Assembly: GCF_024298765.1 (NCBI RefSeq) | Contig: NZ_CP101210.1 | Reading direction: 5' to 3' (one strand) | From: Escherichia coli | GTDB taxonomy: Bacteria; Pseudomonadota; Gammaproteobacteria; Enterobacterales; Enterobacteriaceae | Length of the DNA stretch: 64,000 bases | In this document: piece by piece, positions 24,706-29,081 of the stretch | How the letters are laid out: each line of letters starts with the position of its first letter | Position numbering within the stretch: the first letter of the stretch is position 1 | Notes under the pieces: model-generated | What the model was told of the DNA's origin: nothing | The model's database searches: none | What the model saw: only the letters and a program-made list of their open reading frames with translations | Translations under genes and position numbers: made by a program

Positions 24706-25890
24706 TTAAACAGGCTGCCCCTGATGCGACATCCGCGTCGCCAGCGGTAGCCAGCACAGCACGATCAACAATCCCATTAAGGTCATCAACAATCCCAGGC
24801 TGCCCTGACCGGTTTGCGGCAACATCGCAGAGAGCGACGCCAGCACGCCGGAACCAATGTTTTGCAGACCGCCGACCAGCGCGCCAGCGGTGCCCGCCAG
24901 GAAGGGGAACGGCTCCATCGCGCCGCTGGTAGCCAGTGGAAACAGCATCCCGGCACCGAAAAAGAACAGCGCGGCGGGAATGAGCAGCGTCCAGACATTC
25001 ATCACGCCAAACCAGTCGGGGATCCACATCAGCAAGCCAGCCAGCAGGCAGCAGATAACCGACTGCCACATTAACGTGGAGAAGCGTTTATTGGGACGTC
25101 CGGCAAACCATGCGCCAAAAAACGCTGCCGGAATCGGCAGAATAAACAAAATACTGACCGTCATACTGCTCAACCCTAACACCGCGCCCATCAGCACGCC
25201 GGAGCAGGCTTCAAAGGCGGCAATCCCGGCCAGACCGCCAATCAGCATCAGCAAATAACAGTTAAAACCGCCGTTACCGAAAAGCGTTTTATAACTGGTA
25301 AGCAGGCGCGTGCGCGGTGCGTCGACCGGACGCGTTTCCGGCATCCAGCGGGCCATACTGAAGGTCACACCGGCACAAAGAACCAACAAAAAGAGATAAC
25401 AGGCGCGCCAGTTCCACATCGTATCCAGCAGACCGCCGATTAGCGGTGCGAGCAACGGACTGACAAGAATCCCCATGTTTAACAGGCTGTTAGCATGGCG
25501 CAACTGTGTCCGTTCATATAAATCACGCGGCAAAGTACGCGCCATTACGCCGCCAACGCCGGTGCCCATGCCCTGCATCGCGCTGGCGGCAATCAATACC
25601 GTCAAACTGGAGGTCGTGACCGCGACTAGCGTTGCCAGCATAAAAATGGACATTCCGACGAGGATCACCGGTCGGCGACCCACACGGTCGGAAATTGGGC
25701 CATAAAACAGCTGTGAGACACCGTAAGTCAGCAGATAAGCGCCCATTACGCTCTGCACCGCCCCTTCACGGACGTTGAGATCGCGCGCCATATCGGCAAT
25801 GGCTGGAATATAAATGGTTTGCGCCATCTGACCGACGGCCACGAGTAATACCAACATCAATAACAAATTGACGTTTCTATGCCTTTTCAT
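24706..25890 (-). CDS. emrD: multidrug efflux MFS transporter EmrD
   Basis: 394 aa from MKRHRNVNLLLMLVLLVAVGQ; 12-TM MFS. Confidence 0.92.
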   Translation of the reverse strand: MKRHRNVNLLLMLVLLVAVGQMAQTIYIPAIADMARDLNVREGAVQSVMGAYLLTYGVSQLFYGPISDRVGRRPVILVGMSIFMLATLVAVTTSSLTVLIAASAMQGMGTGVGGVMARTLPRDLYERTQLRHANSLLNMGILVSPLLAPLIGGLLDTMWNWRACYLFLLVLCAGVTFSMARWMPETRPVDAPRTRLLTSYKTLFGNGGFNCYLLMLIGGLAGIAAFEACSGVLMGAVLGLSSMTVSILFILPIPAAFFGAWFAGRPNKRFSTLMWQSVICCLLAGLLMWIPDWFGVMNVWTLLIPAALFFFGAGMLFPLATSGAMEPFPFLAGTAGALVGGLQNIGSGVLASLSAMLPQTGQGSLGLLMTLMGLLIVLCWLPLATRMSHQGQPV

Positions 25891-26169
25891 TATCACGGAT
25901 GCTTTTATAAAAATAATTAGAATAAGTCACTACGCATTCCCATAAATGCGGGAGAGGAATCTATCACATTGATAAATGTTAGCCAGATATACGCCAGGAA
26001 TGGGGAATTGTTTAGCGGCAGAATATGTAAACAAAAGCGGCAATAAATGTTGCCGGGAGAGATGGTAGGGCGGATAAGATGCGTCAGCATCGCATCCGAC
26101 ACCAACCCGCACGCTAAATATAAAAGGGGAGCGGTTACCCGCTCCCCTTTAGTGCGACTTGAATCTGAA

Positions 26170-26259
26170 TTACTTCAGGTATTTCAGAACAGCATCAAGC
26201 AGTTGCAGTGCTGCAACAATGAGTTTGAGGATAAGAATGGCGATATCCACCAGGCTCAT
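26170..26259 (-). CDS. tisB: type I toxin TisB (SOS-induced membrane peptide)
   Basis: 29-aa ORF MSLVDIAILILKLIVAALQLLDAVLKYLK on minus strand; between emrD and ivbL as in K-12. Confidence 0.85.
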   Translation of the reverse strand: MSLVDIAILILKLIVAALQLLDAVLKYLK

Positions 26260-26493
26260 ACGCGTCTCCTGTGGTTCAGGAGCACTGCCAGCTGACGTAC
26301 CTTTCCGCTGCCTGTTGCCAGCTGTTGTGCACGCGGTATCTCAAGGAGAAACGTTGTGCTTGTTGACATAACACAGTGTGCTCACGCGGGGTTAAGGCGC
26401 TGACGGCACCACCCGTTTCAGCCAGGACTTAGTGCGCCGGGTAACGATGCGGCCCCCGCATAACACATTGCGTACAGTGATATTATAGAAGTT

Positions 26494-26513
26494 TACTGTA
26501 TAAATAAACAGTA
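26494..26513. promoter_or_regulatory. LexA box (tisAB / istR-2 control)
   Basis: tactgtataaataaacagta fits CTGT-N8-ACAG. Confidence 0.7.
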
Positions 26514-26618
26514 ATATTGGACAAAACGCAAACTGTGATCGATACTCAACTATGCACTAAATACGTCAAAATTCGTGCCGAAATTGCGCGTTCTGCGCGG
26601 AACACGTATACTTTCAGT

Positions 26619-26693
26619 GTTGACATAATACAGTGTGCTTTGCGGTTACCAGCCGCAGGCGACTGACGAAACCTCGCTCCGGCGGGGTTTTTT
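26619..26693 (+). ncRNA. istR: IstR-1 antitoxin sRNA
   Basis: sigma-70 promoter TTGCGC-17nt-TATACT upstream; gttgacataatacagtgtgct complementary to tisAB leader at 26361-26381; terminator hairpin ccucgcuccggcgggg plus U-run. Confidence 0.65.
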
Positions 26694-26822
26694 GTTACCT
26701 GCAATTCAGTACAAAACGTGATCAACCCCTCAATTTTCCCTTGCTGAAAAATTTTCCATTGTCTCCCCTGTAAAGCTGTGCTTGTATAAATATTGTTAAA
26801 CACAAAACCAACAAGGTCCCCA

Positions 26823-26921
26823 ATGACTACTTCCATGTTCAACGCAAAACTACTACCAACTGCGCCATCCGCCGCAGTGGTCGTCGTGCGTGTGGTGGTG
26901 GTCGTCGGCAATGCGCCGTAG
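26823..26921 (+). CDS. ivbL: ilvB operon leader peptide
   Basis: 32-aa ORF MTTSMFNAKLLPTAPSAAVVVVRVVVVVGNAP rich in Val/Leu regulatory codons. Confidence 0.9.
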   Translation: MTTSMFNAKLLPTAPSAAVVVVRVVVVVGNAP

Positions 26922-26945
26922 GGACTGGAACAACACACGATTCCA

Positions 26946-26979
26946 AAACCCCGCCGGCGCAAACCGGGCGGGGTTTTTC
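26946..26979 (+). terminator. ilvBN attenuator terminator
   Basis: aaaaccccgccggcgcaaaccgggcggggttttt between ivbL and ilvB. Confidence 0.7.
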
Positions 26980-27026
26980 GTTTAAGCACCTCCCGGAAAG
27001 TCGGCCCAGAAGAAAAGGACTGGAGC

Positions 27027-28715
27027 ATGGCAAGTTCGGGCACAACATCGACGCGTAAGCGCTTTACCGGCGCAGAATTTATCGTTCATTTCCTGGAACA
27101 GCAGGGCATTAAGATTGTGACGGGCATTCCGGGCGGTTCTATCCTGCCTGTTTACGATGCCTTAAGCCAAAGCACGCAAATCCGCCATATTCTGGCTCGC
27201 CATGAACAGGGCGCGGGGTTTATCGCTCAGGGAATGGCGCGCACCGACGGTAAACCGGCGGTCTGTATGGCCTGTAGCGGACCGGGGGCGACTAACCTGG
27301 TGACCGCCATTGCCGATGCACGGCTGGACTCCATCCCGCTGATTTGCATTACTGGTCAGGTTCCCGCCTCGATGATCGGCACCGACGCCTTCCAGGAAGT
27401 CGACACCTACGGCATCTCTATCCCCATCACCAAACACAACTATCTGGTCAGACATATCGAAGAACTCCCGCAGGTCATGAGCGATGCCTTCCGTATTGCG
27501 CAATCAGGCCGCCCTGGCCCGGTGTGGATAGACATTCCTAAGGATGTGCAAACGGCAGTTTTTGAGATTGAAACACAGCCCGCTATGGCAGAAAAAGCCG
27601 CCGCACCCGCCTTTAGCGAAGAAAGTATTCGTGACGCGGCGGCGATGATTAACGCCGCCAAACGCCCGGTGCTTTATCTGGGTGGTGGTGTGATCAACGC
27701 GCCTGCGCGAGTGCGTGAACTGGCGGAGAAAGCGCAACTGCCTACCACCATGACTTTAATGGCACTGGGTATGTTGCCAAAAGCGCATCCGCTGTCGCTG
27801 GGTATGCTGGGGATGCACGGTGTGCGCAGCACCAACTATATTTTGCAGGAGGCGGATCTGCTGATTGTACTCGGTGCGCGTTTTGATGACCGGGCGATTG
27901 GCAAAACCGAGCAGTTCTGTCCGAATGCCAAAATTATTCATGTCGATATCGACCGCGCAGAGCTGGGCAAAATCAAGCAACCGCATGTGGCAATTCAGGC
28001 GGATGTTGATGACGTGCTGGCGCAGTTGATCCCGCTGGTGGAAGCGCAACCGCGTGCAGAGTGGCACCAGTTGGTGGCGGATTTGCAGCGTGAATTCCCG
28101 TGTCCAATCCCGAAAGCGTGCGATCCATTAAGCCATTACGGCCTGATTAATGCCGTTGCCGCCTGCGTGGATGACAACGCGATTATTACCACTGACGTGG
28201 GTCAGCATCAGATGTGGACGGCGCAAGCCTATCCGCTCAATCGCCCACGCCAGTGGCTGACCTCCGGCGGGCTGGGCACGATGGGTTTTGGCCTGCCTGC
28301 GGCGATTGGCGCGGCGCTGGCGAACCCGGACCGCAAAGTGTTGTGCTTCTCCGGCGACGGCAGCCTGATGATGAATATTCAGGAGATGGCGACCGCCAGT
28401 GAAAATCAGCTGGATGTTAAAATCATTTTGATGAACAACGAAGCGCTGGGGCTGGTGCATCAGCAACAGAGTCTGTTCTACAAGCAGGGCGTTTTTGCCG
28501 CTACCTATCCGGGCAAAATCAACTTTATGCAGATTGCCGCAGGATTCGGCCTCGAAACCTGTGATTTGAATAACGAAGCCGATCCGCAGGCTGCATTGCA
28601 GGAAATCATCAATCGCCCTGGCCCGGCGCTGATCCACGTGCGCATTGATGCCGAAGAAAAAGTGTACCCGATGGTGCCGCCAGGTGCGGCGAATACTGAA
28701 ATGGTGGGGGAATAA
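27027..28715 (+). CDS. ilvB: acetolactate synthase I large subunit
   Basis: 562 aa; thiamine-diphosphate enzyme motifs; follows ivbL attenuator. Confidence 0.96.
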   Translation: MASSGTTSTRKRFTGAEFIVHFLEQQGIKIVTGIPGGSILPVYDALSQSTQIRHILARHEQGAGFIAQGMARTDGKPAVCMACSGPGATNLVTAIADARLDSIPLICITGQVPASMIGTDAFQEVDTYGISIPITKHNYLVRHIEELPQVMSDAFRIAQSGRPGPVWIDIPKDVQTAVFEIETQPAMAEKAAAPAFSEESIRDAAAMINAAKRPVLYLGGGVINAPARVRELAEKAQLPTTMTLMALGMLPKAHPLSLGMLGMHGVRSTNYILQEADLLIVLGARFDDRAIGKTEQFCPNAKIIHVDIDRAELGKIKQPHVAIQADVDDVLAQLIPLVEAQPRAEWHQLVADLQREFPCPIPKACDPLSHYGLINAVAACVDDNAIITTDVGQHQMWTAQAYPLNRPRQWLTSGGLGTMGFGLPAAIGAALANPDRKVLCFSGDGSLMMNIQEMATASENQLDVKIILMNNEALGLVHQQQSLFYKQGVFAATYPGKINFMQIAAGFGLETCDLNNEADPQAALQEIINRPGPALIHVRIDAEEKVYPMVPPGAANTEMVGE

Positions 28716-28718
28716 GCC

Positions 28719-29009
28719 ATGCAAAACACAACTCATGACAACGTGATTCTCGAACTCACCGTTCGCAACCATCCGGGCGTAATGACCCACGTTTGTGGCC
28801 TTTTTGCCCGTCGCGCTTTTAACGTTGAAGGTATTCTCTGCCTGCCGATTCAGGACAGCGACAAAAGCCACATCTGGCTACTGGTCAATGACGACCAGCG
28901 TCTGGAGCAGATGATAAGCCAAATCGACAAGCTGGAAGATGTGGTGAAAGTGCAGCGTAATCAGTCCGATCCGACCATGTTTAACAAGATTGCGGTGTTT
29001 TTTCAGTAA
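28719..29009 (+). CDS. ilvN: acetolactate synthase I small (regulatory) subunit
   Basis: 96 aa, ACT domain; 3 bp after ilvB. Confidence 0.95.
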
Positions 29010-29081
29010 CCGCTCAAGGCTTGAACAACATCGCGCTTATCGTTAAGGTAAGCGCGTTTTATTACCCTCCAGGACAAGATC

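Follow-up and report, generated by a model that had tools for sequence, protein, structure and literature searches.

The ivbL leader and ilvBN attenuator in an Escherichia coli chromosome: a known element one nucleotide removed from its K-12 counterpart

Introduction

The short interval ahead of ilvB in Escherichia coli raises two related questions, namely whether it carries the leader gene and attenuator known from strain K-12, and what a single departure from the K-12 sequence means for the signal that such a leader would read. The ilvBN attenuator is a textbook device, described in 1982-83, and the K-12 ivbL/ilvBN attenuator is reportedly the subject of the 1982 work of Friden, Newman and Freundlich (as cited in PMC3783181). 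The window analysed here, a stretch of 64,000 nucleotides of E. coli DNA (contig NZ_CP101210.1, assembly GCF_024298765.1), had received an initial annotation that placed in this interval a 32-codon ivbL with runs of valine and leucine codons, followed by a GC hairpin and a T-run before ilvB, and that read the arrangement as classical attenuation. The analysis below indicates that positions 26797-26983 are almost certainly the ivbL-ilvBN leader, in which ribosome-mediated transcription attenuation responds to the charging of tRNA-Val and tRNA-Leu.

Identity of the leader gene and its operon

The leader gene, its upstream signals and the genes that follow it are arranged in the window as listed here.

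26785-26796, plus strand: putative promoter -10 element (TATAAA, 26785-26790, read off the sequence) and approximate transcript start
26797-26822, plus strand: 5' untranslated leader, with a CA-rich stretch ACACAAAACCAACAA at 26800-26814 and then the Shine-Dalgarno sequence AAGG
26823-26921, plus strand: ivbL leader open reading frame, 32 sense codons and UAG, translated as the peptide MTTSMFNAKLLPTAPSAAVVVVRVVVVVGNAP
26838-26840, plus strand: codon 6, TTC (Phe), aligned to CTC (Leu) in K-12 MG1655
26850-26855, plus strand: regulatory leucine codons 10-11, CUA CUA in the sequence
26877-26906, plus strand: regulatory valine run, codons 19-28, VVVVRVVVVV
27027-28715 and 28719-29009, plus strand: open reading frames of ilvB and ilvN, the subunits of acetohydroxyacid synthase I

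An ATG at 26823 opens the ivbL frame in the window sequence and a TAG at 26919-26921 closes it, which bears out the length of 32 codons. The ORF list began this gene at an upstream in-frame TTG (26793); the ATG is preferred because the Shine-Dalgarno sequence AAGG at 26813-26816 lies 6 nt 5' of it and because it is the start annotated in E. coli. An AGG at the same position precedes the start codon in most orthologous leaders. The K-12 ivbL promoter is reportedly cAMP-CRP dependent. A sigma-70 scan called no site at 26785-26796, and since the promoter is reported to be activator dependent this result reads as a limit of the scan and counts as no evidence.

The coding content of the leader is strongly biased. 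Valine occupies nine of the ten consecutive codons 19-28, interrupted by a single arginine, and a single copy of the corresponding pattern (GTNx4-CGN-GTNx5) is present in the 64 kb of the window, whereas 100 shuffles produced none. Thus the valine run stands as it had been annotated; the supposed leucine run, by contrast, comes down to the single CUA CUA pair at codons 10-11. The leader in the window therefore holds eleven regulatory codons, nine for valine and two for leucine. CUA is a rare leucine codon.

The K-12 alignment proposed as a check in the initial annotation gives a match at 360 of 361 nt between positions 26700-27060 and E. coli K-12 MG1655, where the same interval is annotated as ivbL (b3672) with ilvB downstream. 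Matches to the region were obtained in 5418 of 5426 complete E. coli genomes; they are all chromosomal and coincide with features annotated as ivbL and ilvB. Family models agree with this assignment: the peptide scores 75.7 bits against Pfam PF08049 (IlvB_leader; cut-off 25), with residues 1-32 falling on profile positions 1-32, and 80.1 bits against NCBIfam NF007579 (IvbL equivalog; cut-off 60). Downstream of the ivbL stop (26921) the ilvB ATG lies at 27027 on the same strand, and ilvN comes next. The two products are recognised as the large subunit (NCBIfam NF006016, 1088 bits against a cut-off of 870) and the small subunit (NF006036, 185.8 bits against 128) of acetohydroxyacid synthase I. 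The gene order yidF-emrD-tisB-istR-ivbL-ilvB-ilvN-uhpA-uhpB agrees with that of K-12, and the locus (b3672-b3670) is collinear with its K-12 counterpart at 97.4% identity over 5501 nt.

Divergence from K-12 is unevenly spread over this locus. The ilvB gene differs at 62 of 1689 nt (3.7%), with E486K and S523A as the only protein changes, and ilvN differs at 12 of 291 nt with no amino-acid change. The non-coding stretch 26260-27026 has 3 differences in 767 nt, far below the neighbouring genes. A single difference over 423 nt of the leader interval, set against the 3.7% of ilvB, suggests purifying selection on the leader within E. coli. At the other end of the operon, the spacer between ilvN and uhpA (29058-29068) carries small indels and substitutions relative to K-12, with 3 gap positions at 29058-29062.

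The region just upstream of ivbL holds the tisB/istR type I toxin-antitoxin locus (26170-26693), with the following two features.

26170-26259, minus strand: tisB open reading frame, whose product has Ser at residue 2 where K-12 TisB has Asn
26564-26693, plus strand: istR (Rfam RF01400, 150 bits), the only real Rfam match nearby

A LexA-box-like palindrome, TACTGTATAAATAAACAGTA, is located at 26494-26513, and at 26517 the sequence lacks one nucleotide that K-12 has. A strong GC hairpin at 26120-26151, AAAAGGGGAGCGG UUAC CCGCUCCCCUUU, lies between the tisB 3' end and the ysdE/emrD side and looks like a bidirectional terminator; the sole Rfam match on it is sub-threshold (Termite-leu, 22.8 bits against 51).

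When 25800-27200 was compared with Rfam by cmscan at E<=1, the plus strand at 26797-26985 matched no leader family, neither Leu_leader, His_leader, Thr_leader nor Trp_leader, and the matches listed included no model for the ilvB leader, hence the absence of an RNA-family score. This result excludes the Leu, His, Thr and Trp leader families and has no bearing on mechanism. Minus-strand matches over the attenuator hairpin (P6, STnc310) were sub-threshold and covered terminator stems only, and they were dismissed.

Distribution and conservation of the leader among Enterobacterales

The taxonomic distribution of the leader was surveyed with a search for the V4RV5 codon pattern in a single genome of each species. 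Third codon positions are not fixed by this pattern, and synonymous conservation within the valine run is therefore not an artefact of selection. The motif was found within a short open reading frame in 37 Enterobacterales genomes, and in 36 of these an ilvB homologue was detected on the fetched stretch, its start 101-164 nt past the leader stop. The genera represented include Escherichia, Citrobacter, Enterobacter, Klebsiella, Kluyvera, Serratia, Yersinia, Pectobacterium, Dickeya, Brenneria and Morganella. Alignments and counts were made on 35 of the 37 genomes (34 with ilvB detected) together with the window, or 36 sequences in all. The V4RV5 pattern also appears in many unrelated GC-rich genomes (Actinomycetota, Bradyrhizobium, Halobacteria and others); these matches lie inside long open reading frames, or in short ones without ilvB nearby, and were treated as chance or low-complexity occurrences.

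The leader frame is similarly built throughout this set. The start codon (ATG or GTG) stands 18 codons ahead of the valine run in most leaders and 19 codons ahead in four. Codons 10 and 11 are CTA in 36 and 35 of the 36 leaders, respectively, the stop is UAG in all 36, and the third codon positions of the valine run are nearly invariant. Constraint on the leader thus acts on nucleotides and on codon identity, beyond the peptide alone.

This distribution bears on a more sceptical view, according to which the ivbL frame is fortuitous and the hairpin behind it a mere intergenic terminator or insulator, or the real gene is an antisense ORF at 26546-27043 on the minus strand. Such an ORF does exist in a mechanical sense, as a 165-aa frame with a GTG start that spans istR, the ivbL promoter, ivbL and the attenuator, and the symmetric hairpin gives weak minus-strand matches to the terminator portions of unrelated sRNA models. 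However, a fortuitous frame would not be expected to score above the cut-offs of two curated IvbL models, to carry a V4RV5 pattern that arises in 0 of 100 shuffles, or to keep its frame, its 18 codons before the valine run and its stop in 36 species. The antisense frame, for its part, is broken by 1-nt indels between species, is annotated neither in K-12 nor in ATCC 8739, and would have to cross istR, which has its own terminator at 26667-26693. Its Thr-rich centre is the reverse complement of the valine run. The sceptical view consequently retains next to no probability, and nothing contradicts the identification of the ivbL leader and attenuator.

Terminator and antiterminator

Four RNA elements were delineated in the leader transcript, the helices being predicted.

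26856-26880, plus strand: conserved hairpin within the open reading frame, codons 12-20, including the pair U26861-A26876 (dG -9.8 kcal/mol)
26885-26918, plus strand: weak 'protector' helix, CGUGCGU at 26885-26891 (Val21-Arg23 codons) with GCGCCG at 26913-26918 (codons 31-32)
26912-26961, plus strand: antiterminator, with a 5' arm at 26912-26918 and 26921-26923, an inner hairpin at 26926-26945 and a 3' arm at 26950-26952 and 26955-26961
26945-26983, plus strand: intrinsic terminator (the attenuator), with stem 26945-26957/26964-26977, loop 26958-26963, bulged G at 26966 and U-tract UUUUUCGUUU at 26974-26983

The GC hairpin and T-run annotated ahead of ilvB were recovered at 26945-26977 and 26974-26978. 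AAAACCCCGCCGG and CCGGGCGGGGUUUU make a terminator stem of 13 pairs with a GC core at 26949-26957/26964-26973, and the TTTTT that trails the hairpin lies 49 nt from the ilvB start at 27027. The terminator fold of 26940-26985 has a dG of -21.6 kcal/mol (z = -3.2), and positions 26945-26978 alone give -21.1 kcal/mol. For the 189-nt leader as a whole the predicted fold has an energy of -72.4 kcal/mol (z = -3.8), which no shuffle out of 200 equalled. A simple terminator scan of the region left the attenuator hairpin (26945-26977) unflagged; this is read here as the effect of a stem rule that does not accommodate the bulged G at 26966, a shortcoming of the method that does not count against the hairpin.

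The antiterminator is built in part from the end of the leader gene. Its 5' arm, UGCGCCG..GGG (26912-26923), corresponds to codons 31 (Ala) and 32 (Pro), the UAG stop and three bases beyond it, and its 3' arm, CCC..CGGCGCA (26950-26961), doubles as the 5' arm of the terminator, with 12 nt shared. The prediction of alternative hairpins, the second check proposed in the initial annotation, returned a terminator and an antiterminator that exclude each other and have equal dG, -21.1 kcal/mol each. Over the full leader the best terminator state lies at -72.4 kcal/mol and the best antiterminator state at -68.9 kcal/mol, a gap of 3.5 kcal/mol.

Comparison across species gives different kinds of evidence for the different helices. 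In the terminator, 95% of cells are paired and 10 of the 13 pairs are invariant over the 36 species, and the terminator and outer antiterminator arms never vary among the 36 leaders. Because these helices are invariant they provide no covariation support, and the argument for them is one of conservation rather than compensatory change; such invariance amounts to extreme conservation for a non-coding RNA. The inner hairpin of the antiterminator does show compensatory changes, from A-U to U-A in 7 sequences and from G-C to A-U in 4. Within the coding region, the third positions of Thr13 (ACU/ACC; 26859-26861) and Ala18 (GCA/GCG; 26874-26876) covary, with C-G in 24 leaders, U-A in 10 and A-U in 1, and this covariation supports a putative conserved helix inside ivbL.

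The protector helix is less clear. It is present in the RNAalifold consensus of the 36 leaders with one-sided changes only, and its single-sequence variant has a dG of -9.1 kcal/mol. A large E. coli-specific 'protector' spanning 26823-26906 (-33.5 kcal/mol) is absent from the 36-species consensus and was set aside. Without a ribosome, the nascent transcript is predicted to prefer the antiterminator, by about 10 kcal/mol (-60.1 against -49.8 kcal/mol). With a weak protector, and with the antiterminator favoured in ribosome-free RNA, the textbook 1:2/2:3/3:4 picture fits this leader only loosely.

A Term-seq 3' end, 'ivbL_t', has been reported in K-12, and in a synthetic assay the isolated ivbL terminator proved weak (PMC9023263), as one would expect of a regulated attenuator taken out of its context. 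The same weak activity (PMC9023263) would also suit a scheme in which ilvBN is controlled mainly after transcription, by GcvB acting at the CA-rich 5' untranslated region together with RNase E, the hairpin serving as a stability or processing element. In K-12, ivbL has been reported as a target of GcvB, with predicted binding in its 5' untranslated region near the AUG, and RNase E sites occur in the ivbL-ilvB spacer (PMC11347164); the CA-rich stretch at 26800-26814 is present in the window. The source paper, however, treats ivbL as an attenuation leader and wants corroboration for the GcvB mechanism (PMC11347164), and an sRNA-only model leaves unexplained the conserved valine run and CUA CUA pair, and also why the stop codon overlaps the antiterminator arm, a conserved feature as well. 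Mainly post-transcriptional control is for these reasons extremely unlikely, and regulation by GcvB and RNase E is better regarded as acting on top of attenuation than as taking its place.

Dependence on ribosome position and a model for attenuation

Equilibrium folds that included the terminator 3' arm gave the terminator at almost every ribosome position and did not discriminate between states. It follows that the switch must be kinetic, and folds of the nascent transcript to 26963, that is, before the terminator 3' arm exists, were used instead. The ribosome was represented as a mask over all bases through 14 nt past the first base of the A-site codon, an assumed footprint in a thermodynamic treatment. 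With the A site at codons 10, 11 or 19-26, this masking model predicts sequestration of the terminator 5' arm at -21 to -39 kcal/mol. At Val27 the sequestering structure is weaker (-11.4 kcal/mol), and with the A site at codons 28-33 sequestration is gone, the values running from -7.3 kcal/mol at Val28 to -0.4 kcal/mol at the stop codon. In the model, termination would depend mainly on a ribosome occluding the stop-codon region, and the modelling together with the K-12 literature suggests that the choice of helix is set by the position at which the ribosome stalls.

These elements may be combined into the following mechanism. RNA polymerase would transcribe the leader as a ribosome translates the 32-codon ivbL. 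When valine and leucine are plentiful, the ribosome would run to the UAG at 26919-26921 and cover GCGCCGUAGGG (26912-26923); positions 26950-26961, left uncaptured, would then pair with CCGGGCGGGG, and the resulting terminator and U-tract would stop transcription before ilvB. When charged tRNA-Val is scarce the ribosome would stall at codons 19-26, and when charged tRNA-Leu is scarce it would stall at the CUA CUA codons 10-11, in either case leaving 26912-26923 free. The free segment and 26950-26961 would form the antiterminator, the terminator 5' arm would be sequestered, and transcription would read through into ilvBN. A stall at the leucine codons may involve a relay, in which CCAUCCGCCGCA (26866-26877), once free, captures the segment of Val and Arg codons UGCGUGUGGUGG (-13.9 kcal/mol) and would in this way keep that segment off 26913-26918.

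Experimental work on the K-12 leader is in keeping with this mechanism. A K-12 ivbL-gfp reporter is repressed by valine and by leucine, six other amino acids with codons in the leader have no effect on it, and a leader variant taken up in the Discussion of the same paper responds to valine only (PMC11187965). A slowdown at the ivbL leucine codons has been modelled under leucine starvation (PMC3783181). By analogy with the K-12 literature, which concerns a sequence different by 1 nt, and from the modelling above, the leader in the window would be expected to respond to both valine and leucine in vivo. The reading as classical attenuation is thus supported by the identity to K-12, the profile scores, the synteny, the mutually exclusive hairpins and the K-12 reporter work.

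The codon 6 polymorphism

The statement in the initial annotation that the sequence matches the known arrangement holds for 360 of 361 nt, but it hid one non-synonymous difference. More specifically, a C to T change at 26838 (Leu6Phe) is the sole difference from K-12 within 26699-27121 (423 nt). The K-12 leader has twelve valine plus leucine codons (PMC11187965), and the change reduces the leucine codons from three to two and the regulatory codons from 12 to 11. The Phe6 allele is widespread within the species. A 57-mer carrying the window allele has exact matches in 2448 of 5417 E. coli genomes (about 45%) and the K-12 57-mer (Leu6, CTC) in 1872 (about 35%), counts in which about 20% of genomes go uncounted as further SNPs disturb megablast word matching.

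With TTC in place of CTC, the leader could conceivably have become effectively valine-only, or markedly less leucine-sensitive than that of K-12, the more so as engineered changes in leader codon content can shift the response and one variant is valine-only (PMC11187965). However, the CUA CUA pair at codons 10-11, kept in 36 of 36 and 35 of 36 species, is intact in the window, whereas codon 6 is poorly conserved across genera, with CTG (Leu), ATG (Met), AAC/AAT (Asn), TCC (Ser) and CAG (Gln) among the aligned codons. A stall at codon 6 had no distinctive outcome in the equilibrium masking scan. Base 26838 is unpaired in the predicted fold, which is unchanged by the substitution, the minimum free energy being -72.4 kcal/mol for both alleles. 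An altered sensor of this kind is very unlikely, and the related idea of a functional Phe6/Leu6 polymorphism that tunes the ilvBN response to leucine limitation between E. coli lineages has a similarly slim chance of being correct. Given its occurrence in about 45% of complete E. coli genomes, the Phe6 allele is probably a common and neutral polymorphism.

Comparison with known attenuators

The element in the window is already known as the ivbL leader and attenuator of ilvBN, and a single common SNP separates it from the K-12 form. It shares with the K-12 attenuator the gene order, the length of 32 codons, the valine run, CUA CUA, UAG and the terminator, and over 361 nt, which take in the promoter, the leader frame, the attenuator and the ilvB start, it differs only by the change at codon 6. 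Its identification has little significance beyond correct annotation, giving exact coordinates for the parts and recording the Leu6Phe allele. The ivbL element has already been applied as a valine and leucine biosensor in metabolic engineering (PMC11187965).

The IvbL orthologues of E. albertii, Citrobacter, Enterobacter, Klebsiella, Serratia, Yersinia, Pectobacterium, Dickeya, Brenneria and Morganella share the core ...AAVVVVRVVVVVG(N/S)AP followed by the stop. In nearly all of them codons 10-11 encode LL; the UAG stop is shared too and the arms of the terminator and antiterminator are invariant, whereas the first nine codons and codons 12, 15 and 16 vary freely; in some genera there is a GTG start or 1-2 additional valine codons. 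The invariant CUA CUA and UAG, the synonymous sites of the valine run and the Thr13/Ala18 covariation should be useful for building an RNA-family model of the leader.

A broader comparison can be made with the attenuators of trp, his, leu, thr, pheA and ilvGMEDA (ilvL), with which the ivbL leader shares a short leader rich in codons for amino acids of the pathway, alternative hairpins and a signal based on ribosome position. Neither by sequence nor by covariance model does it match the Rfam Leu, His, Thr or Trp leaders. The ivbL leader is bivalent, for valine and leucine, in contrast to the monovalent leaders of that group, and its upstream protector helix is weak in the predictions. It differs further in that the 5' arm of its antiterminator overlaps the last codons and the stop of the leader gene, such that the terminating ribosome would itself block this arm.
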